The notes under the pieces: model-generated
Database searches by the model: none
Told to the model about the DNA's origin: nothing
What the model saw: the letters and a program-made list of their open reading frames with translations, nothing else
Shown here: piece by piece, positions 4,381 through 20,880 of the stretch
Position numbering within the stretch: the first letter of the stretch is position 1
Layout of the letters: the number at the start of each line of letters is the position of its first letter
IMG/VR virus record: IMGVR_UViG_2585427776_000012
Source: a virus
Lineage: Duplodnaviria; Heunggongvirae; Uroviricota; Caudoviricetes
Reading direction: 5' to 3' (one strand)
DNA: 21,926 bases
Program-made: the position numbers and the translations under genes

Positions 4381-4946
4381 TATCGCGTCCTCAACAATGA
4401 ATTTTGTGATGCGGTGCCTGGTGCCTCCAGGTGACGTTAACCAGTTAACAATTAACGCCGGATACAGAGAATCCACCCATAACACTGTTTTTGGTTTTAA
4501 CTGTTCCGCGTGCGCTCAGCCGCATTCACCACATCACAAAATTCACTTTAAAAAGGGCGGCAGAGCAGTCACGGAGTAAAACTGATACCGCCAAACGTCA
4601 CCAGAAAATTGATAACAGAGGGCGTTGCAGCGGGGTTGTCACTTAAGCGTATGGTCAACCTGACAACCCGGTGTCCTCAACGGGGGAAGGAATAACCCCG
4701 CCATACTTACCGCCGCGCCATTTCGCGGATTGCCACAACCGGAAGCGCACGGTCGACGAAAATTTAACGACAGGCTATCTATGAACCAGCTACCTCGCCG
4801 TGCGCTTTCGCGTTATGGTCTGACTTTTCAGGGAAATATCCTTTCAGTAAACTGTCAGTGCCGGATTCTTATCCGTGTCCGGCGCACGACCACACGCTGT
4901 CACGAGAGGTCTCCATTCTCAACCAGTAACCTCAATGGAGGATAAA

Positions 4947-5924: not shown

Positions 5925-6563
5925 TTAAATATTTTGTTGAATTTTAAAGCATACGCCCAATATGCAAGATAGATCATCCAGCATAATTGAAGGGTAGCGA
6001 GGATTCGTGGGGACTAAAAGAATATCCGGCCCTTCTATCTCCAGTTTACGAATGACAGGTGTTGTGGTCCCTTTGGGTAAGGCAAGGACAATATTTCCTG
6101 GTTGTACGGTTCGATCGGGATCAACAAAAACTGTTGAACCATTTGGGATGGAAACTCCCCCACCAGATGTTGACATACTGTCACTCTCTAGAACAACTGC
6201 AAAGGTATTGGCCGGGATTTCTCCGACAAGCTGCACACAAGAGGTTATTGAGGAATTTTTCATATAATCACTCCAGCTTGCTGCCTGCTGAAGTGATAGT
6301 AGCGGAACCGTTTTTATCGGCGGTAAAGATAGATCAAGCGAATCACCTGTATTTAACTCTCCTCCATTAAGAAGCCAATTTTCGTTTACTTTCAATATTT
6401 TTGCCAGTGAACTTATGTAACGCGAGGACGGCGCTCCTCCACCGTTCATCCATTGACTTACGGAGCCTTTTGATGCGCCAGTGGCATTGACAAGGTCTTT
6501 GCCTTTCAGGTTTAGCGCATGCATACGTTGGGTTATGCGTTCAGATATTGTTTGCTTGTTCAT
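5925..6563 (-). CDS. cI-like prophage repressor (N-terminal HTH, C-terminal LexA/S24 peptidase-like domain)
   Basis: 212-aa ORF divergent from the cro-like gene. N-terminal HTH-like segment (GASKGSVSQWMNG...). C-terminal region is S24-like (SMSTSGG ... IRK). Confidence 0.8.
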   Translation of the reverse strand: MNKQTISERITQRMHALNLKGKDLVNATGASKGSVSQWMNGGGAPSSRYISSLAKILKVNENWLLNGGELNTGDSLDLSLPPIKTVPLLSLQQAASWSDYMKNSSITSCVQLVGEIPANTFAVVLESDSMSTSGGGVSIPNGSTVFVDPDRTVQPGNIVLALPKGTTTPVIRKLEIEGPDILLVPTNPRYPSIMLDDLSCILGVCFKIQQNI

Positions 6564-7377: not shown

Positions 7378-8448
7378 ATGGCTAACGCCTGGCTCAGATT
7401 ATGGCATGACATGCCAAATGACCCTAAGTGGCGAACAATTGCCAGGGTGTCAGGGCGGCCAATTGCAACAGTGATGGCAGTGTATATCCACCTCCTGGTG
7501 AGCGCGTCACGAAATGTCACGCGAGGTCACATTGATGTCACGACAGAAGATTTGGCAAGTGCGCTCGACGTGACAGAAGAGGTAATTGATTCAATTTTGC
7601 AGACGATGCAGGGGCGGGGACTTGATGGTGATTTAATCACTGGATGGGAAAAACGCCAGGTGCTTAAAGAGGACAACGGCAATATTTCGCAAACCGCAAA
7701 ATCTCCTGCAGAGCGCAAGAGGGCGCAGCGAGAGAGGGAAAGAAAGCGGGAACAAAATGGCGATTGTCACGGCGCGTCACGAAATGTCACGCACATGTCA
7801 CGACGAGTCACGACAGATAAAGATACAGATAAAGATACAGATCAAGAAGATCAAAACACTATGGTCCATGGCGTAAAAAACGCCACGAACCAGGCAGGGG
7901 ATGTTCAGACCGTCAATCTTGGTCAGCCAGCAGGCACGACACCGGAAGCCGATTCAGCGTATGCGCTGAAAGCCGATTCGGGCGCTGTGCAGCAGGTGAT
8001 GACCGCAAGGCCGGAGCAATCACACCAACTGCAGCAGCCCGAAGCCGATTCCGCCATTCAGCGGGAAGCCGATCGGGTAGTCCCGGAAAACACCGGGCAG
8101 TCTGTGGGACGAGTGGATTATCCGGATGTGTTCGAACAGGTCTGGCGGGAGTACCCGTTGCGTGCTGGGGCAAACCCGAAGAAATCCGCTTTCAGTGCCT
8201 GGAAGGCCAGATTACGCGAGGGGGTGCCACCAGAGGCCATGCTGGATGGCGTGAGGCGTTACGCAAGATACTTGGCGGCTACCGGGAAAACGGGAACGGA
8301 ATTTGTTCAGCGAGCGACGACGTTTTTTGGACCGGACCGGAATTTTGAGAACCCCTGGTTGCTCCCGGTAAGCGGCACGAACAACCAGCGTTGTGTGAAT
8401 CATATTTCTGAACCGGATAACGAAATTCCGCCGGGCTTCAGGGGGTAA
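7378..8448 (+). CDS. Replication initiator-like protein (YdaU/DUF1376-like, O-protein position) carrying internal origin iterons
   Basis: RBS GAAGAGG before the ATG at 7378. N-terminus MANAWLRLWHDMPNDPKWR recalled as YdaU-like. Gene contains two iteron clusters and an AT-rich repeat, as lambda O contains ori-lambda. Confidence 0.65.
   Translation: MANAWLRLWHDMPNDPKWRTIARVSGRPIATVMAVYIHLLVSASRNVTRGHIDVTTEDLASALDVTEEVIDSILQTMQGRGLDGDLITGWEKRQVLKEDNGNISQTAKSPAERKRAQRERERKREQNGDCHGASRNVTHMSRRVTTDKDTDKDTDQEDQNTMVHGVKNATNQAGDVQTVNLGQPAGTTPEADSAYALKADSGAVQQVMTARPEQSHQLQQPEADSAIQREADRVVPENTGQSVGRVDYPDVFEQVWREYPLRAGANPKKSAFSAWKARLREGVPPEAMLDGVRRYARYLAATGKTGTEFVQRATTFFGPDRNFENPWLLPVSGTNNQRCVNHISEPDNEIPPGFRG
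7504..7850. repeat. Candidate replication origin: two clusters of GTCACG iterons at about 10-bp phasing plus an AT-rich tandem repeat
   Basis: Cluster 1 around 7504-7546 and cluster 2 around 7765-7816 (5 evenly spaced copies: tGTCACGgcgcGTCACGaaatGTCACGcacatGTCACGacgaGTCACG). Immediately followed by ATAAAGATACAG x2 and an A-rich tract (7817-7850). Confidence 0.7.
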
Positions 8449-8488: not shown

Positions 8489-8911
8489 GTGGCAAAAGTT
8501 TTTACACAAGAAGAGCGGGAAAAAATTAAAGGACAGGTTGTTGAACTCGTACGCCAGAGTGGGCGTGAGACGTTACGGCAACTGGAAGTCAAGACAGGTG
8601 CGACAAGATATCTGATGAGCGTTCTCGCAAGAGAGCTGGTTGCCAGCGGCGATGTATGCAACTCTGGTTACGGGTTATTCCCGTCTGAACAGGCGCGTAA
8701 GGACTGGCAAAATGCCCGTAAAAAGCTCTCAAGGGCAAAGCTGAAGAAACCATCTGCGGTTGATCCGGACCTTATCTGGTCATTACCTGACGGAGAAATA
8801 CGTCGCTACGACAGGCGTCAGAACATAATCTGTCGCGAGTGCCGGAAGAGTGAAGTTATGCAGCGCATATTGTCGTTTTATCAGGGTGATGTTCGGTATT
8901 TATTGAAGTGA
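8489..8911 (+). CDS. Hypothetical protein (140 aa) downstream of the replication gene
   Basis: GTG start at 8489 with AGGAGG 6 nt upstream. Basic, helical; no recognisable catalytic motif. Occupies the position where a helicase loader (P/DnaC-like) would usually be. Confidence 0.55.
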   Translation: MAKVFTQEEREKIKGQVVELVRQSGRETLRQLEVKTGATRYLMSVLARELVASGDVCNSGYGLFPSEQARKDWQNARKKLSRAKLKKPSAVDPDLIWSLPDGEIRRYDRRQNIICRECRKSEVMQRILSFYQGDVRYLLK

Positions 8912-9042
8912 CGAGATTAAAGTGCATTAGTTCAGATGCAAATTGACATTTTGTGGCACAGGGTAGAGCTAGCGTGGTTGTCCGCTTTGTGCCAATAGCG
9001 GACATTGCTGGCTCATGGTATGTTAGTTTAAGGAGGCAGGTT

Positions 9043-10065
9043 ATGCCCTGTATTTCGCTGTGGTATAATAGTTGCGCAATTGATACAAGGGAGCGTTACA
9101 TCGTGAAAATTGTTTTCGAGGTTAATGGAAAGAAAGTTCCACTAAAATCTTTAAAATACATAAGCAAAAAAGATCAACTCGAAGTAATGAAAAACTGGTT
9201 CTTTGAAAACTTTGAAGATCCGGCAAATGCTTGTCCGTATGAAAGTAGAGAAGGTGGCTATGCTTACATATATGGCGGGCCGTATGATGCGAGCGAAGAA
9301 CTACAATCCATCTTCGGTCAATATGTTAAATCTGAGTATATTGAGGAATTAGTAGATGAATTACAAACACAATGTTTTGACTGGTCTGGAAACTCAAATA
9401 ATATAGATGATTGGTACGATGATGATATCTACGACGCTGTAACGTCTTCCGGTAATCCGTATTTAAAATTCATTGATAATATCGATAAAATAAAAAAACT
9501 TGCAAAAGATAAAACTGAACAACAGCAAAAAAAACACTTGCTTAGTTTGCTCTACACGAATGTTATTACAGCTTTGGAAACGCTTTATGTTGAGCTATTC
9601 ATTAATTCTATAGAGAAAGATGATGTCTACATAGCCAATTGTATAGAAAAAGGTAAGACTGAATTTAAAGTAAGCAAAGATATTGCTGCGTTGCCTTTCA
9701 AGGGTGAACCCATCGAGAAAATTAGGGGAGAGCTAATCAGGTCAATCAAGGAACACTTGATCAGTGCAAGCTGGCATAGCACTAAAAAGGTAATCGACCG
9801 CTATGAAGCTACATTCGATATAAAAGTACAAAAAGACTGTCCGATAGAAGCTATTGAATTGGCAACCCTCAATCGAAATCACTTAGTGCATCGTGGTGGA
9901 AAGGATAAAGAAGGGAACCTCGTAGTGATTACAGACCAGGATCTTGAAACGCTGATTGAAAATGCATCGAACCTGGCAATTATGCTCTACAACAGTTTAA
10001 ATGTAGCAACGAATAAAACCACCATTTTGCAACCAGATGACAAACCGTTCATTCATGAATTTTAA
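9043..10065 (+). CDS. AT-rich cargo gene A: protein with C-terminal HEPN-like Rx4H motif (putative RNase / abortive-infection effector)
   Basis: ATG at 9043 with AAGGAGG 5 nt upstream; alternative GTG start at 9103 with AAGGGAG upstream and an extended -10 (TGGTATAAT, 9061-9069). Sharp drop to roughly one-third GC (by eye). C-terminal helical region carries LNRNHLVHRGG, matching the HEPN R-[N]-x3-H signature. Confidence 0.6.
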   Translation: MPCISLWYNSCAIDTRERYIVKIVFEVNGKKVPLKSLKYISKKDQLEVMKNWFFENFEDPANACPYESREGGYAYIYGGPYDASEELQSIFGQYVKSEYIEELVDELQTQCFDWSGNSNNIDDWYDDDIYDAVTSSGNPYLKFIDNIDKIKKLAKDKTEQQQKKHLLSLLYTNVITALETLYVELFINSIEKDDVYIANCIEKGKTEFKVSKDIAALPFKGEPIEKIRGELIRSIKEHLISASWHSTKKVIDRYEATFDIKVQKDCPIEAIELATLNRNHLVHRGGKDKEGNLVVITDQDLETLIENASNLAIMLYNSLNVATNKTTILQPDDKPFIHEF

Positions 10066-10080
10066 TAGCGCAGGTCATAC

Positions 10081-11082
10081 ATGGATATTCGCACACGAAA
10101 GACAAAATTTTTAGAGTCGTTAGATTCAACTGAAGTGATACGCAAAGCAGTAAGTCTCGCTATAGATTGCATTATTGATAATCATAATAGTAATGAAGAT
10201 ACCCCCTTAGTTATTACCAGCTATGATGATCTCTGTAGAATCCAGGTGCTAAATTATGTACAGGAGTTTTGCGAAGCTGCATTCCCTGATATGGATGAAT
10301 ATTACTTTAGTCCTAACATACTTCGCATCAACGGCAAGACTAGTGAAGAAGCTTGTATTAACTTAATTAAACTCTTAAGAAGTACAAAAGGCATGCTATT
10401 CTGGTCCGATGCCCCATCGTGGTTCGCTAGCCTCCCCGACGGATTATTCCATGTTGTTAACATTGATCAAAAAATCGTTACTCGCGGCCTTAATAAGAAA
10501 AACTCTAAGCCGACAATAATCAATAAAGATTACAGTGTAGATACACTACTATCAGAGCTATTTTTGAATGGCGCACACATGGAGCAATCCAACGTACACA
10601 ACGTTTCTGAGGGAAACATGAAGTTCTATGATGAATGCCATGCTGGATTAATCAGACCAATACCCGCTCCAATAGGCGCGTCATACGATGAAGAGATCAC
10701 AATTAATTCTCCAGATTGGCAAAAGCTCGCGTGTGTAGCTTTACGCCGCTATCAGTCGAAGGAATGTCATGACGGAATGCAATGGGATACAACCGATCAT
10801 GGTTGGACTGATGTAATCGCGTATCCATTCGTCGAAGAAATACAATCAATGGATAATAGTGGTTATCGACAATGTTTAGTTGGGCTGGTCACAATAAACA
10901 ATTCAAATGCAAATTCTCCGTACCTATCTACCGTTTGGATACATCCATTTTATCGCAGGAGAGGGTTATTAAGTAAGTTATGGCCAAAATTACAAGAGTT
11001 ATATGGAAGTAACTTCGAAATTGAGCGACCTAATGAAAATATGAAAGCATTTCTGAAAAGTGCGAAACACGCAGATTACTAA
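10081..11082 (+). CDS. AT-rich cargo gene B: protein with C-terminal GNAT-fold acetyltransferase-like domain
   Basis: 333-aa ORF 15 bp after gene A, same AT-rich composition. C-terminal IHPFYRRRGLLSKLWPKL fits GNAT motif A (acetyl-CoA binding R/Q-x-x-G-x-G/A). N-terminal ~220 aa unrecognised. Confidence 0.6.
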   Translation: MDIRTRKTKFLESLDSTEVIRKAVSLAIDCIIDNHNSNEDTPLVITSYDDLCRIQVLNYVQEFCEAAFPDMDEYYFSPNILRINGKTSEEACINLIKLLRSTKGMLFWSDAPSWFASLPDGLFHVVNIDQKIVTRGLNKKNSKPTIINKDYSVDTLLSELFLNGAHMEQSNVHNVSEGNMKFYDECHAGLIRPIPAPIGASYDEEITINSPDWQKLACVALRRYQSKECHDGMQWDTTDHGWTDVIAYPFVEEIQSMDNSGYRQCLVGLVTINNSNANSPYLSTVWIHPFYRRRGLLSKLWPKLQELYGSNFEIERPNENMKAFLKSAKHADY

Positions 11083-11488: not shown

Positions 11489-11569
11489 TTTTATATTGGC
11501 GAGGTGACGGGAGTTAAGTAGAATTGCTGCGGGTGCTTGAGGCTATCTGCCTCAGGCATGAACACCAAA

Positions 11570-11650
11570 GGCAGATAGAGAAAAGCCCCAGTTAATATTA
11601 CGCGTCCTGCAAGACGCTTAACATTAATCTGAGGCTCAATCTATGAACGG
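11570..11650 (-). ncRNA. sok: Predicted Sok-like antisense RNA (position inferred, boundaries approximate)
   Basis: In hok/sok loci the antisense RNA is transcribed opposite to the hok leader across the mok translation start. Placed by analogy; promoter not confidently identified. Confidence 0.3.
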
Positions 11651-11699
11651 CAAATCTAGGTTAGCCTCTTACGTGCCGAAAGGCAAGGAGAAGCAGGCT

Positions 11700-11855
11700 A
11701 TGAAGCAGCAAAAGGCGATGTTAATCGCCCTGATCGTCATCTGTTTAACCGTCATAGTGACGGCACTGGTAACGAGGAAAGACCTCTGCGAGGTACGAAT
11801 CCGAACCGGCCAGACGGAGGTCGCTGTCTTCACAGTTTACGAACCTGAGGAGTAA
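11700..11855 (+). CDS. hok: Hok-family type I toxin (in-frame upstream extension from 11643 = mok-like leader ORF)
   Basis: Product MKQQKAMLIALIVICLTVIVTALVTRKDLCEVRIRTGQTEVAVFTVYEPEE matches the Hok/Gef family as recalled. Upstream leader GGGTGCTTGAGGCTATCTGCCTCAGG resembles the conserved hok mRNA 5' end. Intrinsic terminator downstream. Confidence 0.85.
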   Translation: MKQQKAMLIALIVICLTVIVTALVTRKDLCEVRIRTGQTEVAVFTVYEPEE

Positions 11856-13355: not shown

Positions 13356-13730
13356 ATGCTCATAGATTTGGTTTTACCTTACCCGCCGACGGTGAACACT
13401 TACTGGCGACGCCGTGGCAGCACATATTTTGTATCAAAAGCCGGGGAGCGTTATCGCCGGGCAGTGGCGCTTATTGTTCGCCAGCAGCGGCTGAAATTAA
13501 GCCTGTCCGGAAGGCTGGCGATAAAGGTGATTGCAGAGCCACCGGATAAGCGTCGTCGCGACCTGGACAATATCCTGAAAGCACCGCTGGATGCGCTGAC
13601 GCATGCGGGAGTGTTAATGGACGATGAGCAGTTTGATGAAATCAATATCGTTCGTGGTCAGCCAGTATCTGGTGGACGTCTGGGGGTGAAGATTTACCCC
13701 ATAATGCTTGAAGGGCAGGTCAAAAAATGA
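13356..13730 (+). CDS. rusA: RusA-family Holliday junction resolvase
   Basis: 124 aa. Motifs YWRRRG and DKRRRDLDNILKAPLDALTHAGVLMDDEQ match RusA (DRRRRDLDN...DALT) as recalled. Typical position just upstream of Q. Confidence 0.85.
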   Translation: MLIDLVLPYPPTVNTYWRRRGSTYFVSKAGERYRRAVALIVRQQRLKLSLSGRLAIKVIAEPPDKRRRDLDNILKAPLDALTHAGVLMDDEQFDEINIVRGQPVSGGRLGVKIYPIMLEGQVKK

Positions 13731-14548
13731 AACTGGAAGATTTACCGAAATACTACTCCCCAAAATCCCCCGGCCTGACTGATGCATCGGCCTCAACGTC
13801 GAAAGATGCGCTGAGTATCACTGATGTGATGGCCGCGCAGGGCATGACACAGAATCGGGCTGAGATGGGGTTTTCTGCGTTCCTTGGTAAAATGGGCATT
13901 AGTATGAATGACAGAGAGCGGGCAACAGAATTGCTGACAGAATATGCACTCAGTCGGTGTGATCGCGTGGCGGCGTTAAGAAAACTCCCGGCAGAAATAA
14001 AACCGGCAGTGATGCGTATTATGGCTTCGTATGCGTTTGAAGATTATGCCCGTAGCGCGGCGAGCAAAAAACAGTGCCCCTGCTGTCACGGAAAAAAATT
14101 TATTGAAAGCGAGGTTTTTACAAACAAGGTCCAGTATCCGGATGGTAAGCCGCCGGTATGGGCAAAGTGTACGAAAGGTGTGTATCCGTCTTACTGGGAA
14201 GAATGGAAAAAAGTCAGGGAGGTGGTAAAAGTTGCCTGTCCGGAGTGTGGCGGAAAGGGTGAGGTTTCCACCGCCTGTAAGGATTGCCGTGGGCGTGGTG
14301 TCGCCATTCATCGTGAAGAGTCGGTAAAACGTGGTATGCCTGTTATCAGAGACTGCCAGCGTTGTGGTGGTCGTGGCTGTGAAAGACTACCATCAACGGA
14401 GGCATTTAATGCCATATGCAAAGTGACGAGTGCTATCACGCTTGATACGTGGAAAAAATCAGTGAAACGCTTTTACGATACGTTGGTGGTTCGGTTTGAC
14501 ATTGAAGAGGCATGGGCGGAGCGGCAGTTAAAGAGGGTAACGCGATAG
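13727..14548 (+). CDS. Late-gene antiterminator Q (long, zinc-binding Q type)
   Basis: Start overlaps the rusA stop (ATGA). Several CxxC pairs (CPCCHG, CPECGG, CKDCRG, CQRCGG). Followed by a pR'-like promoter and short-transcript terminator. Confidence 0.75.
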   Translation: MKLEDLPKYYSPKSPGLTDASASTSKDALSITDVMAAQGMTQNRAEMGFSAFLGKMGISMNDRERATELLTEYALSRCDRVAALRKLPAEIKPAVMRIMASYAFEDYARSAASKKQCPCCHGKKFIESEVFTNKVQYPDGKPPVWAKCTKGVYPSYWEEWKKVREVVKVACPECGGKGEVSTACKDCRGRGVAIHREESVKRGMPVIRDCQRCGGRGCERLPSTEAFNAICKVTSAITLDTWKKSVKRFYDTLVVRFDIEEAWAERQLKRVTR

Positions 14549-15122: not shown

Positions 15123-16172
15123 ATGCTTAATACTGTAAAAATATCCAGTTGTGAGTTAATCAACGCCGACTGCCTGGAATTTATCCGGTCGTTACCCGAA
15201 AATTCTGTTGACCTGATAGTCACGGACCCGCCGTACTTTAAAGTGAAGCCTGAGGGCTGGGATAACCAGTGGAAGGGCGACGATGATTACCTGAAGTGGC
15301 TGGACCAGTGTCTGGCGCAGTTCTGGCGGGTGCTGAAACCTGCCGGAAGTCTTTACCTGTTCTGTGGTCATCGCCGGGCATCTGATATCGAAATCATGAT
15401 GCGTGAACGCTTCAGTGTGCTGAACCATATTATCTGGGCGAAGCCGTCCGGACGCTGGAACGGATGCAACAAGGAAAGCCTGCGGGCGTATTCCCCCGCC
15501 ACAGAGCGCATTCTGTTCGCGGAACATTATCAGGGGCCGTATCGTCCGAAAGATGCCGGGTATGCGGCGAAGGGCAGTGCACTGAAACAGCATGTGATGG
15601 CCCCGCTGATTTCTTACTTTCGTGATGCGCGCGCGGCCCTGGGGATAACGGCAAAACAGATTGCAGATGCCACAGGAAAGAAAAACATGGTGTCGCACTG
15701 GTTCAGTGCCAGTCAGTGGCAGCTACCGAACGAAAGCGATTATCTGAAATTACAGTCGCTGTTTGCCCGGGTGGCAGAAGAGAAACATCAGCGCGGTGAA
15801 CTGGAAAAGCCCCACCACCAGCTGGTGGATACGTATACGTCACTGAACCGGCAGTATGTGGAGCTGCAGAGTGAATATAAGCATCTGCGGCGGTATTTTG
15901 GTGTGACGGCGCAGGTGCCGTACACGGATGTGTGGACACATAAACCGGTGCAGTTCTATCCCGGGAAACATCCGTGCGAAAAACCGGCAGAAATGCTGCA
16001 GCAGATAATCAGCGCAAGCAGTCGTCCGGGTGACCTGGTTGCAGATTTTTTTATGGGCTCAGGTTCAACGGTAAAAGCGGCACTGGCGCTCGGGCGTCGT
16101 GCGATTGGCGTTGAACTGGAGACCGGACGTTTTGAGCAGACAGTCAGGGAAGTTCAGGATTTAATCGTTTGA
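15123..16172 (+). CDS. Orphan DNA methyltransferase (beta-class amino-methyltransferase, N6-adenine or N4-cytosine)
   Basis: Motif IV VTDPPY near the N-terminus and motif I DFFMGSGST near the C-terminus (beta-class order). No adjacent restriction endonuclease. Same position as the methyltransferase of Stx-type phages. Confidence 0.85.
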   Translation: MLNTVKISSCELINADCLEFIRSLPENSVDLIVTDPPYFKVKPEGWDNQWKGDDDYLKWLDQCLAQFWRVLKPAGSLYLFCGHRRASDIEIMMRERFSVLNHIIWAKPSGRWNGCNKESLRAYSPATERILFAEHYQGPYRPKDAGYAAKGSALKQHVMAPLISYFRDARAALGITAKQIADATGKKNMVSHWFSASQWQLPNESDYLKLQSLFARVAEEKHQRGELEKPHHQLVDTYTSLNRQYVELQSEYKHLRRYFGVTAQVPYTDVWTHKPVQFYPGKHPCEKPAEMLQQIISASSRPGDLVADFFMGSGSTVKAALALGRRAIGVELETGRFEQTVREVQDLIV

Positions 16173-16221: not shown

Positions 16222-16297
16222 GGCCCTTTAGCTCAGTGGTGAGAGCGAGCGACTCATAATCGCCAGGTCGCTGGTTCAAATCCAGCAAGGGCCACCA
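16222..16297 (+). tRNA. tRNA-Ile2 (anticodon CAT, lysidine type; a Met reading is not excluded by sequence alone)
   Basis: Cloverleaf by eye: acceptor GGCCCTT/AAGGGCC, D-arm GCTC...GAGC, anticodon loop CTCATAA, T-loop TTCAAAT, encoded CCA. Closely resembles E. coli ileX as recalled. Confidence 0.8.
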
Positions 16298-16304
16298 TCA
16301 CATA

Positions 16305-16381
16305 CCGCCATTAGCTCATCAGGAAAGAGCGCCAGCCTTCGAAGCTGGTTGCGCGGAGTTCGGGTCCCCGAAGGCGGTCCA
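16305..16381 (+). tRNA. tRNA-Arg (anticodon read as TCG; one mismatch each in acceptor and T stems)
   Basis: Anticodon stem CCAGC/GCTGG with loop CTTCGAA, D-arm GCTC/GAGC, encoded CCA. Anticodon read by eye and should be confirmed with a tRNA scanner. Confidence 0.6.
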
Positions 16382-16394
16382 TTATCTGTATCCT

Positions 16395-16471
16395 GCGTTG
16401 TTAGCTCAGCCGGACAGAGCAATTGCCTTCTAAGCAATCGGTCACTGGTTCGAATCCAGTACAACGCGCCA
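16395..16471 (+). tRNA. tRNA-Arg (anticodon TCT, reads the rare AGA codon)
   Basis: Acceptor GCGTTGT/ACAACGC, anticodon stem ATTGC/GCAAT with loop CTTCTAA, T-loop TTCGAAT, discriminator G, encoded CCA. Confidence 0.8.
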
Positions 16472-17446: not shown

Positions 17447-17707
17447 ATGGCATTTAAACACTATGACGTGGTCAGGGCGGCATCGCCGTCAGACCTTGCG
17501 AAACGACTGACACAAAAACTGAAGGAGGGCTGGCAGCCGTTTGGTAGTCCGGTGGCCATAACCCCTTATACCCTGATGCAGGCGATTGCAGCAGAAGGTG
17601 ATGTGGTCGTCAGTGGTGCAACTGAGCCGGAGTGGTACTACGTCATCGTACTGGCCGGGCATCCGGTGTGGAGGTGGACAAGGTTGCAGAGGCTTTCGGA
17701 AAACTGA
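17447..17707 (+). CDS. Hypothetical protein (86 aa), probably 3'-truncated at a deletion junction
   Basis: Strong RBS GGGAGGA before the ATG at 17447. The ORF runs into the out-of-frame start of H-homologous sequence, so its C-terminus is probably not native. Confidence 0.5.
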   Translation: MAFKHYDVVRAASPSDLAKRLTQKLKEGWQPFGSPVAITPYTLMQAIAAEGDVVVSGATEPEWYYVIVLAGHPVWRWTRLQRLSEN

Positions 17708-19578
17708 CCACTGACCCGACGTCGGGGCTGATTGCGATGGCGAAGCAGTTCCATAACGTGACGGCGGAGCAGATTGCGTATGTTGCTCAGTTGCAGCGTT
17801 CCGGCGATGAAACCGGGGCATTGCAGGCGGCGAACGAGGCCGCAACGAAAGGGTTTGATGACCAGACCCGCCGCCTGAAAGAGAACATGGGCACGCTGGA
17901 GACCTGGGCAGACAGGACAGCGCGGGCATTCAAATCCATGTGGGATGCGGTGCTGGATATTGGTCGTCCTGATACCGCGCAGGAGATGCTGATTAAGGCA
18001 GAGGCTGCGTTTAAGAAAGCAGACGACATCTGGAATCTGCGCAAGGATGATTATTTTGTTAACGATGAAGCGCGGGCGCGTTACTGGGATGATCGTGAAA
18101 AGGCCCGTCTTGCGCTTGAAGCCGCCCGAAAGAAGGCTGAGCAGCAGACTCAACAGGACAAAAATGCGCAGCAGCAGAGCGATACCGAAGCGTCACGGCT
18201 GAAATATACCGAAGAGGCGCAGAAGGCTTACGAACGGCTGCAGACGCCGCTGGAGAAATATACCGCCCGTCAGGAAGAACTGAACAAGGCACTGAAAGAC
18301 GGGAAAATCCTGCAGGCGGATTACAACACGCTGATGGCGGCGGCGAAAAAGGATTATGAAGCGACGCTGAAAAAGCCGAAACAGTCCGGCGTGAAGGTGT
18401 CTGCGGGCGATCGTCAGGAAGACAGTGCTCATGCTGCCCTGCTGACGCTTCAGGCAGAACTCCGGACGCTGGAGAAGCATGCCGGAGCGAATGAGAAAAT
18501 CAGCCAGCAGCGCCGGGATTTGTGGAAGGCGGAGAGTCAGTTCGCGGTACTGGAGGAGGCGGCGCAACGTCGCCAGCTGTCTGCACAGGAGAAATCCCTG
18601 CTGGCGCATAAAGATGAGACGCTGGAGTACAAACGCCAGCTGGCTGCACTTGGCGACAAGGTTACGTATCAGGAGCGCCTGAACGCGCTGGCGCAGCAGG
18701 CGGATAAATTCGCACAGCAGCAACGGGCAAAACGGGCCGCCATTGATGCGAAAAGCCGGGGGCTGACTGACCGGCAGGCAGAACGGGAAGCCACGGAACA
18801 GCGCCTGAAGGAACAGTATGGCGATAATCCGCTGGCGCTGAATAACGTCATGTCAGAGCAGAAAAAGACCTGGGCGGCTGAAGACCTGCTTCGCGGGAAC
18901 TGGATGGCAGGCCTCAGGTCCGGCTGGAGTGAGTGGGAAGAGAGTGCCACGGACAGTATGTCGCAGGTTAAAAACGCGGCCACGCAGACCTTTGATGGTA
19001 TTGCACAGAATATGGCGGCGATGCTGACCGGCAGTGAACAGAACTGGCGCAGCTTCACCCGTTCCGTGCTGTCCATGATGACAGAAATTCTGCTTAAGCA
19101 GGCAATGGTGGGGATTGTCGGGAGTATCGGCAGCGCTATTGGCGGGGCTGTTGGTGGCGGCGCATCCGCGTCAGGCGGTACAGCCATTCAGGCCGCTGCG
19201 GCGAAATTCCATTTTGCAACCGGAGGATTTACGGGAACCGGCGGCAAATATGAGCCAGCGGGGATTGTCCACCGCGGGGAGTTTGTCTTCACGAAGGAGG
19301 CAACCAGCCGGATTGGTGTCGGGAACCTGTACCGCCTGATGCGGGGCTATGCGGAAGGGGGGTATGTGGGTGCTGCCGGAAGTCCGGCGCAGATGCGGCG
19401 GGCCGAAGGCATTAATTTTAATCAGAACAATCACGTGGTGATTCAGAACGACGGTATCAACGGACAGGCCGGGCCGCAGCTGATGAAAGCGGTGTATGAG
19501 ATGGCCCGTAAAGGTGCGCAGGATGAGCTCCGGCTGCAGTTGCGTGATGGCGGTCTGTTATCGGGGAGCGGGCGATGA
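17660..19578 (+). pseudogene. Tail tape-measure protein H, 5'-truncated fragment (C-terminal ~640 codons)
   Basis: No start codon or RBS at the 5' end of the homology. C-terminal region FHFATGGFTGTGGKYEPAGIVHRGEFVFTKEATSRIGVGNLYRLMRGYAEGGYVG...NNHVVIQNDG...LRDGGLLSGSGR is lambda-H-like as recalled. Confidence 0.8.
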
Positions 19579-19904: not shown

Positions 19905-20641
19905 TGCAGGATATTCACGAAGAAAGTCTGAACGAGTCGGTTAAGTCAGAGCAGTCACCGCGGGTGGTACTCTGGGAAATCGACCTGACGGTGCAGGGCG
20001 GTGAGCGGTATTTTTTCTGCAATGAGCTGAATGAAAAAGGGGAGCCGGTGACCTGGCAGGGGCGTGAATATCAGGCGTACCCGATTGAGGGGAGTGGCTT
20101 TGAGATGAACGGGAAGGGCAGCAGTGCCAGACCATCGCTGACGGTGTCCAATCTGTTTGGTCTGGTCACCGGGATGGCGGAAGACCTGCAGAGTCTGGTG
20201 GGGGCCACGGTGGTCCGCCGCCGGGTGTATGCCCGTTTTCTGGATGCGGTGAATTTCGTTGCGGGCAATCCGGAGGCGGACCCGGAGCAGGAGCTGAGTG
20301 ACCGCTGGGTGGTGGAGCAGATGTCGCAGCTGACAGCCATGACGGCCTCGTTTGTGCTGGCCACACCGACCGAGACGGACGGGGCGCTGTTTCCCGGTCG
20401 TATCATGCTGGCGAACACCTGTATGTGGACCTACCGCTCTGATGAGTGTGGTTACACGGGCGGGGCTGTGGCGGATGAGTTCGATAAACCCACCACGGAT
20501 ATCCGTAAGGACAGATGCAGCAAGTGCATGCGCGGGTGTGAACTGCGCAGGAATGTCGGCAATTACGTCCGTTACCGGAAAATGTTACCTGGTTATCGCC
20601 GGAAGGGGAGTTTCAGAAGTGGAACGGCACAGCCTGGGTGA
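19904..20641 (+). CDS. Minor tail protein L (C-terminal ~25 aa replaced by out-of-frame tfa-derived sequence)
   Basis: 245 aa; strong similarity to lambda gpL through ...[16 protein letters not shown], after which the sequence diverges (recombination junction about 20565-20578). Confidence 0.8.
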
Positions 20642-20880
20642 AGGATACGGAAGCAGAAAAACTGTTCCGGATCCGGGAGGCGGAAGAAACAAAAAACAAC
20701 CTGATGCAGGTAGCCAGTGAGCATATTGCGCCGCTTCAGGATGCTGCAGATCTGGAAATTGCAACGGAGGAAGAAACCTCATTGCTGGAAGCCTGGAAAA
20801 AGTATCGGGTGTTGCTGAACCGTGTTGATACATCAACTGCACCTGATATTGAGTGGCCTACGAACCCTGTCAGGGAGTAA
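20578..20880 (+). pseudogene. Tail fibre assembly protein (Tfa) 3' fragment fused out of frame to the end of L
   Basis: Frame-1 translation [94 protein letters not shown] is the typical Tfa C-terminal region. No N-terminus or own start; the K, I, J and stf genes are absent. Confidence 0.75.

Follow-up and report, generated by a model that had tools for sequence, protein, structure and literature searches.

Phased GTCACG repeats inside a prophage initiator gene form a likely embedded replication origin

We analysed a 21,926-nucleotide (nt) stretch of DNA, hereafter the window, from a virus of the Caudoviricetes (IMG/VR record IMGVR_UViG_2585427776_000012), in which a prophage gene for a replication initiator carries two arrays of the hexamer GTCACG and, just behind the second of them, an A-rich tract. 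A preliminary description, made from the letters of this stretch, had taken the repeats for the iterons of the prophage's own replication origin. The gene and the elements within it are listed here, with distances in base pairs (bp).

7378–8448, plus strand: replication initiator gene ('phage replisome organizer'), 356 amino acids, with a GAGG motif 6 nt before its ATG
7502–7545, plus strand: iteron array 1, with GTCACG at 7506, 7516 and 7537 and the variant GTCACA at 7526, spaced 10/10/11 bp
7569–7574, minus strand: inverted iteron copy GTCACG at codon 65, 33 bp past the last copy of array 1
7764–7812, plus strand: iteron array 2, five copies of GTCACG at 7766, 7776, 7786, 7797 and 7807, spaced 10/10/11/10 bp
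7813–7860, plus strand: A-rich and purine-rich tract, a candidate DNA-unwinding element, 48 bp, 71% AT, 56% A and 71% purine
7862–7892, no strand assigned: palindrome TGGTCCATGGCGT-AAAAA-ACGCCACGAACCA, with 13-nt arms, 2 mismatches and a loop of five A

Across the whole window GTCACG occurs 19 times, a count that was not equalled in any of 100 shuffles that preserve dinucleotides, for which the figure was 8.66 ± 2.61. Nine of these copies lie within 307 bp, for which the density in the remaining window predicts 0.14 (Poisson P = 6e-14); coordinates and statistics alike thus confirm the nine copies in two clusters, about 10 bp apart, that had been described. Among hexamers of which more than two copies have a neighbour at 10–11 bp, GTCACG is alone in the window (7 copies), and it is neither clustered nor repeated at this period anywhere in the window besides the arrays of the initiator gene. 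Direct repeats in helical phase, at least three in a row, are therefore present twice, as arrays of four and five copies at 10–11 bp, and are joined by the one inverted copy. When synonymous codons were permuted with the protein sequence and codon usage kept constant, GTCACG occurred 2.47 times on average and at most 8 times over 20,000 trials; the actual gene has 9. The copies are read in frames 2, 0, 1 and 0 in array 1 and in frames 1, 2, 0, 2 and 0 in array 2, and are translated as SR, VT or (C/G)H. Since all three frames are used, the repeat unit is DNA and not peptide. A stretch of 21 nt is identical between the arrays (7502–7522 and 7772–7792), which is why the peptide SRNVT is duplicated at residues 44 and 134, much as the preliminary description had it when it proposed that the iterons dictate the repeated peptide.

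The two arrays occupy different parts of the protein. Array 1, about 130 bp into the gene, about 260 bp from array 2 and with no AT-rich tract of its own, codes for residues 43–56, at the end of helix 3 and in the loop ahead of the helix-turn-helix, and the inverted copy codes for residues around 65, in the turn. Array 2 codes for linker residues 130–145 and, taken together with the A-rich tract, for residues 130–160. The tract starts straight after array 2 with 2.9 tandem copies of ACAGATAAAGAT (7813–7847), so that the tandem repeat and A-rich tract described earlier could be recovered as such, and the 40-nt segment of lowest G+C content in the gene (0.30) falls within 7813–7860. By sequence composition, then, an AT-rich element directly adjoins the repeats. 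No enrichment of DnaA boxes (TTATCCACA, up to 2 mismatches) was found at the site, the window having 76 matches where 63 are expected; the nearest such match is ATATCCACC at 7484. No RNA family of Rfam overlaps 7378–8448. Within the A-rich tract there are two GATC (Dam) sites, at 7840 and 7849 and hence 9 bp apart, and AAAGATCTAAAAGAT recurs in the tracts of several relatives, from enterobacteria and from Aeromonas, as well as in ydaU of the Rac prophage. Together these hint that the candidate unwinding element might be controlled by methylation or SeqA.

The initiator is divided into a winged-helix N-domain (residues 1–93), a disordered linker (about 94–245), a helical C-domain (249–315) and a DnaT-like tail (333–356). 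The predicted fold of the N-domain is a winged helix, with the N-terminal domain of DnaD among the best structural matches, and segments with a predicted local distance difference test score (pLDDT) below 50 span residues 133–245. Array 2 and the tract accordingly lie in the stretch of the gene that codes for the inter-domain linker, and the lambda-like layout that had been suggested, with iterons and an AT-rich region inside the initiator gene, is what we find; as in lambda O, they come after a winged-helix N-domain. The protein matches PHROG 3729 ('replication initiation protein') from end to end, residues 1–356 on profile positions 1–356, with E = 3e-256, and the PHROG 'replisome organizer' families 4880 and 5968 with E = 1e-5 and 7e-5; RefSeq labels identical copies of the gene 'phage replisome organizer'. 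In Pfam there was no match at E ≤ 0.01, including none to DUF1376, Phage_rep_O or PF17948, a sub-threshold match to HTH_Crp_2 aside; PF17948 is carried by some relatives with other C-modules. Membership of the lambda O family (Phage_rep_O) is ruled out by the lack of a profile match. Membership of the YdaU/DUF1376 family is ruled out as well, by the lack of a DUF1376 match and by a BLASTP comparison with K-12 YdaU, which aligns the last 19 residues and, weakly, the low-complexity linker around TDKDTD. The gene had been called 'YdaU-like'. That name has to give way to 'phage replisome organizer' (PHROG 3729) as far as the family of the N-domain is concerned, and what the gene has in common with YdaU is limited to the position in the gene order, a linker motif and the C-terminal tail.

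Sequence similarity to DnaT is confined to that tail. Its last 24 residues (..SEPDNEIPPGFRG) match DnaT in NF002770 (E = 7.5e-4) and in PDB entry 6aep (E = 0.003), a search of PDB sequences returned the DnaT tail and one designed repeat protein and nothing else, and the C-terminal part of the initiator is DnaD/DnaT-like. Residues 333–356 (..VNHISEPDNEIPPGFRG, window positions 8380–8445) are close to the C-termini of both DnaT and Rac YdaU. Judged from the sequences, this resemblance suggests a common short motif that may contact host replication proteins or single-stranded DNA.

The comparison of iterons with those of related prophages, which the preliminary description had recommended, was made on 86 homologous loci from many genera, with N-domain homologues from phages and 80 bacterial species. 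For each gene, an unbiased scan of the first 560 nt recorded the hexamer with the most copies phased at 10–11 bp. At least three phased copies were found in the linker region of 73 of the 86 loci, in the N-domain region of 45 and in both regions of 44, while control regions from the flanks of these loci gave 0–2 phased copies, with a single exception that had 5. Most loci thus have arrays at the same two places, and these are built from clade-specific motifs. These fall into six classes (GTCACG, GTAACG, GCAACG, CGAACG(C), GTGACG and GGAACG), to all of which ACG is common. The motif differs among clades and the two arrays of one genome are alike: when the motif of each region was determined on its own, the two had a 4-mer in common in 37 of 44 loci, compared with 23 on average and at most 31 when motifs were re-paired at random between loci, and among the remaining pairs most of those looked at proved to be one iteron in a different register. 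In 22 non-redundant genes of the GTCACG type, from different genera, third codon positions are conserved at 0.93 within the hexamers and at 0.56 outside them (Mann-Whitney P = 1.3e-5). The iteron hexamers are under selection at the level of DNA.

Relatives at increasing distance keep this arrangement. Near-identical genes (97–99%) are carried by the Escherichia coli phages Tritos, Evi, vB_EcoS-689R5 and others, the gene has a match in 2,699 of 5,426 complete E. coli genomes (over at least 80% of its length in 1,647), and relatives were found across the Proteobacteria, one protein search having yielded 757 homologues. Aeromonas phage pAEv1818 and Pseudomonas phage phi1, in which the N-domain is about 70% identical and the C-termini are different, have GTCAC(G) at codons 43, 47, 50 and 54 (spacing 10/10/11) and an inverted copy at codon 65, exactly as in the window gene, and a second array from codon 130 that is followed by A-rich repeats of the GATAAAGAT type. 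Many other homologues also have copies at these four codons of array 1, and the position of the inverted copy (nt 192 of the gene) is kept in many homologues. Ralstonia phage Firinga (38% identity) and a Manatee Spring podovirus (48% identity) show an equal layout built from GCAACG and from CGAACGC, respectively. A scan of IMG/VR returned copies that were all 98–99% identical and hence uninformative for co-variation and for the palindrome. Very many database copies of the protein are 'partial' and lie on short contigs that end inside the gene; one cluster (P0009) has 1,121 members, of which the longest recorded contig measures 683 nt. This would fit assembly breaks where co-resident prophages have one half of this mosaic gene in common and differ in the other.

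A further comparison is with the Shiga toxin (Stx) phage 75/02 of Shigella, which represents the 'Eru4' type of Stx-phage replication regions (PMC8951638). The C-terminal half alone is common to the two proteins (64% identical from residue 158), and the N-domains are unrelated. At both analogous places, phage 75/02 has a repeat of its own, AAGGGGCTTC/GAAGCCCCTT at 11-bp spacing, and downstream of the repeats an A-rich GAACAG tract and then the same palindrome as in the window. Read from the sequence, one inner-stem pair of this palindrome is altered on both sides, from GGCGT/ACGCC to GGCGA/TCGCC. It follows that the exchangeable unit consists of the N-domain, both arrays and the A-rich tract, with the junction to the C-module just past the tract. 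Repeats and DNA-binding domain change together, then, with the caveat that the two are physically linked.

The tract and what follows it were also compared across the family. Over the 50 nt past the last linker iteron, AT content is above that of the gene in 71 of 72 loci (0.60 vs 0.42) and the top strand is richer in purines than the gene in 70 of 72 (0.71 vs 0.56). The repeated units are 6 nt long, AGATAA or AGATAC, and AGAGAA or AGAGGA in high-G+C hosts, so that the conserved property of the tract is its strand asymmetry and AT enrichment, not a run of U. In the roughly 90 nt after the tract, hairpins whose stem is perfect over at least 5 bp and whose loop is 4 nt long occur at 0.53 per segment, compared with 0.092 in control segments. 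T..C loops (GNNA on the other strand) make up 18 of 38 family hairpins and 4 of 108 control hairpins (Fisher P = 2.7e-9); the stems are wholly different from locus to locus, and the hairpin is present in part of the family only. Loci with a hairpin after the purine tract include L099, L105, L118, L122, L134, L142 and L168, among others.

Array 1 is the more variable of the two arrays. It is absent in the Massilia clade, and in Xanthomonadales (loci L140, L143–L146 and L148) it is found at nt 87–107 of the gene instead of nt 129–160, where it codes for eight inserted residues, LSR..NVT, in the loop that joins helices 2 and 3. Elsewhere the usual loop, which in most clades follows helix 3, lengthens with added iteron copies; L114, L125, L090 and L113 are further loci with variation in the array 1 loop. 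From the relocation and the growth of the loop it follows that iteron arrays behave like surface-loop insertions of the initiator. As far as sequences can tell, the pattern points to selection, more than once, for a further group of putative initiator sites at some 260 bp from the core, and array 1 is probably auxiliary, serving in looping, wrapping or copy control.

Taken together, we consider it likely that the arrays and the tract are the replication origin of the prophage, embedded in its own initiator gene in the style of lambda and SPP1. The repeats and their phasing, the selection on them at the DNA level, the architecture common to the family, the concerted change of motif and the fold and domain layout are all observed features of these loci; the identity of the binding protein, the unwinding, the recruitment of a helicase and the role of array 1 are what we infer from them. 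In our model the winged-helix N-domain would bind the 6-bp GTCAC(G) cores, and with one site per helical turn the initiator would be stacked along one face of the DNA. The core of the origin would be the five-copy array 2 (7766–7812) and the tract, which are near-universal in the family. Array 2, once loaded with initiator, would put strain on the neighbouring A-rich polypurine tract at 7813–7860 and open it, and the DnaD/DnaT-like C-terminal part would then engage the opened strand and bring in the replicative helicase. The C-terminal domain of DnaT itself forms filaments on single-stranded DNA (PMC13377028). Because no DnaC- or DnaB-like gene lies next to the initiator gene in the window, the host's DnaB and DnaC would be used. 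More tentatively, array 1 and the hairpin can be accommodated together: array 1 might be an independently acquired loop insertion, some 25 helical turns from the core, that acts in control by looping or handcuffing, and the hairpin, with its variable stem and conserved T..C loop beside a polypurine hexanucleotide-repeat element, might be a third origin element, perhaps a signal for single-strand priming or helicase loading. We regard this combined proposal as possible and somewhat doubtful.

Several points weigh against an embedded origin recognized by the initiator. Because the iterons lie in or beside the DNA that codes for the N-domain, part of their co-variation is automatic linkage, and co-variation alone does not identify the binder; what is not automatic is that 7–10 copies are uniform within one genome while clades differ. 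By inspection of alignments, there was no simple mapping of iteron classes on N-domain subfamilies, nor did any specificity residues outside the iteron-coded loops track the motif class. The match to TIGR01714 reached 17.5 bits, below the cut-off of 49.8, and an hhalign comparison of the N-domain profile with SPP1 G38P, made with shallow profiles, gave no similarity (Prob 0.14). Among 11 records in PLSDB there was no small plasmid that relies on this gene alone; the records are large plasmids, mislabelled chromosomes, or Pseudomonas records of about 51 kb, sized like related Pseudomonas phages. A literature search yielded no account of an origin, or of binding, unwinding or autonomous replication, for this initiator family, and the papers on Eru types of Stx-phage replication regions do not discuss origins and iterons. 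Finally, this prophage looks defective, with its late region deleted, and its origin may no longer serve phage production; here it may be a relic, or the driver of local amplification only.

Among other explanations, we weighed one in which the arrays are initiator sites for control (autorepression, a transcriptional roadblock or copy control of the handcuffing type) while replication truly starts at another place. Separate control arrays do occur in iteron plasmids, P1 and F among them; array 1, about 130 bp into the gene, has no AT-rich tract of its own, and since some clades lack it or carry it at a different position, the core can do without it. An AT- and purine-rich tract after array 2 in all but one locus, with a hairpin in part of them, is the anatomy of an origin and not of an operator, however, and the window has no other place where GTCACG is clustered or phased. 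Control without an origin is therefore unlikely for the locus as a whole; it may hold for array 1 alone, but it does not account for the tract after array 2. It is very unlikely, in our estimate, that a host factor or another phage protein binds the repeats in place of the product of the gene that harbours them. Linkage alone would carry the iterons along with the N-domain, and the ACG found in every motif class could point to a common reader. Against a host factor, the motif varies among clades that infect related hosts and GTCACG stays constant across hosts as unlike one another as E. coli, Pseudomonas, Aeromonas and Bordetella, and DnaA boxes are not in excess at the site; as for other phage proteins, the winged-helix N-domain is the only module always linked to the arrays, while downstream genes and C-domains vary.

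The A-rich tract and palindrome could also be an intrinsic terminator for leftward (antisense) transcription in place of an unwinding element. In a consensus scan the minus strand at 7892–7862 does look terminator-like, with a 13-pair stem and a T-rich tail that is the complement of the A-rich tract, and in several relatives the hairpin abuts TTTATCTTTATC on the minus strand. But the stem is separated from its run of four T by 5 nt in the window, the polypurine tract of high-G+C hosts (AGAGGAGAGG) has a complement that is rich in C and T and not in U, and the 4 terminator-like sites of the window do not significantly exceed the 2.5 expected, so that we give this explanation even less credence than a foreign binder. 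A minus-strand match from a promoter scan, which had no significant result, consists of iteron sequence and was set aside. Least of all do we favour the idea, next to negligible in our judgement, that the repeats are a by-product of a selected peptide (SRNVT, VT, DKDT), a neutral recent duplication or a pac site. SRNVT is indeed duplicated, the low-complexity linker DKDTDKDTD is also found in YdaU, and a pac site was considered since that of P1 has two hexamer clusters. Selection on a peptide is at odds with a period of 10–11 bp, which is not a multiple of 3, with the use of all three frames, with the conservation of synonymous sites in the hexamers and with codon permutations that fall short of the actual count. 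The persistence of the arrays across genera shows that they are not recent, and, against a pac site, they track the replication gene through phages of different taxonomic groups.

Returning to the embedded origin, its design, with iterons and an AT-rich unwinding element inside the initiator gene, is textbook; the initiator family is new for it. New in detail, as read from the sequence, would be the 6-bp core at each helical turn, the two arrays, one of them in the loops of the DNA-binding domain, the polypurine candidate unwinding element made of hexanucleotide repeats, and the downstream hairpin. In lambda, the iterons are 19 bp long, partly palindromic and about 20 bp apart, and a palindrome lies to the right of the AT-rich region. 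The window differs from it in its 6-bp core at a 10–11 bp period, in the second array within the region coding for the DNA-binding domain, in its distinct protein family, and in having no P-like or DnaC-like partner gene. It resembles lambda in that the origin would lie in the initiator gene, in the region of the disordered linker after the winged-helix N-domain, where the iterons add residues to the protein. Lambda's iterons and AT-rich tract lie mid gene O, and in lambda and Stx phages the N-terminal DNA-binding part and the origin form one unit while the C-terminal part is exchangeable (PMC7466680). Like the element described here, oriL of SPP1 lies within a replisome-organizer gene, gene 38, and in RefSeq the window gene goes by that functional name too; the 'AB boxes' of oriL are bound by G38P, which has no AAA+ domain, beside an AT-rich unwinding element, and a second binding region is oriR (PMC5737612). 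SPP1 differs in having its own loader and helicase, G39P and G40P, and in that its second site is elsewhere in the genome, where the second array of the window is 260 bp away in the same gene.

The Rac prophage shares with the window the gene order (repressor, Cro-like gene, YdaT-like gene, initiator, (YdaV), DUF977), the linker DNA element ATAAAGATACAGATAAAGATCT, which codes for NKDTDKD, and the C-terminal tail ..PD..IPPGFRG. It differs in the N-domain (DUF1376, unrelated in sequence), in the sequence of the repeats, and in the DnaC-like YdaV next door, for which the window has no counterpart. In E. coli K-12, ydaU (L169:4010–4140) has repeats of its own, of the TGTTCAAAC type and both direct and inverted, followed by nearly the same A-rich element, ATAAAGATACAGATAAAGATCT, and then by runs of C. 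From their sequence, these repeats and the A-rich element look like an equivalent origin, which we take to be, possibly, oriJ. Iteron plasmids with a winged-helix Rep (P1, F, R6K, pPS10) differ from the window in having iterons of about 17–22 bp outside the rep gene, and the initiator family described here is found almost exclusively in phages and prophages.

These results give a concrete candidate map of the origin for a prophage replication module that is among the commonest. The map can be used in the annotation of prophages and in predicting, by iteron class, the replication incompatibility or immunity of co-resident prophages, as well as in the design of origin-rescue vectors and in reading local amplification after the induction of defective prophages. 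The graded motif classes on one architecture also make a natural data set on how the specificity of a winged-helix initiator shifts in step with that of its sites, with these sites coding for part of the protein as well.

The initiator gene stands in the following surroundings, the three RNA features marked as such having scored above the Rfam gathering score.

4555–4606, minus strand: DicF antisense small RNA (Rfam)
5925–6563, minus strand: S24 repressor, followed by a Cro-like gene, a YdaT/CII-like gene, the initiator gene and the DUF977 gene
8489–8911: DUF977/'Ren-like' gene, following the initiator gene
11531–11705, plus strand: sok antitoxin RNA of a hok/sok-type module (Rfam)
13727–14548: antiterminator Q
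15123–16172: DNA methylase
16222–16468: three transfer RNAs
17632–19578: tape-measure-like open reading frame, whose alignment starts at position 163 of the 208-position TMP_2 profile
20639–20837, plus strand: IS009 RNA (Rfam)

A DnaC- or DnaB-like gene after the initiator gene, which is missing from the window, is present in phage 75/02, Rac, pAEv1818 and Firinga. No lysis, terminase or head genes were found between the Q region and the open reading frame at 17632–19578, which covers no more of the tape-measure profile than its C-terminal part, and from this sequence the prophage looks defective, its late region deleted. Two copies of the small RNA STnc100 also lie ahead of that open reading frame. 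Behind the DUF977 gene, two open reading frames form an island of low G+C content (0.37–0.39) within 8489–11082. PADLOC matched neither of them; the first encodes 370 amino acids, with a weak match to a HEPN/RES N-terminal domain, the second 333 amino acids, with a weak match to GNAT, and they could be cargo or defence genes.

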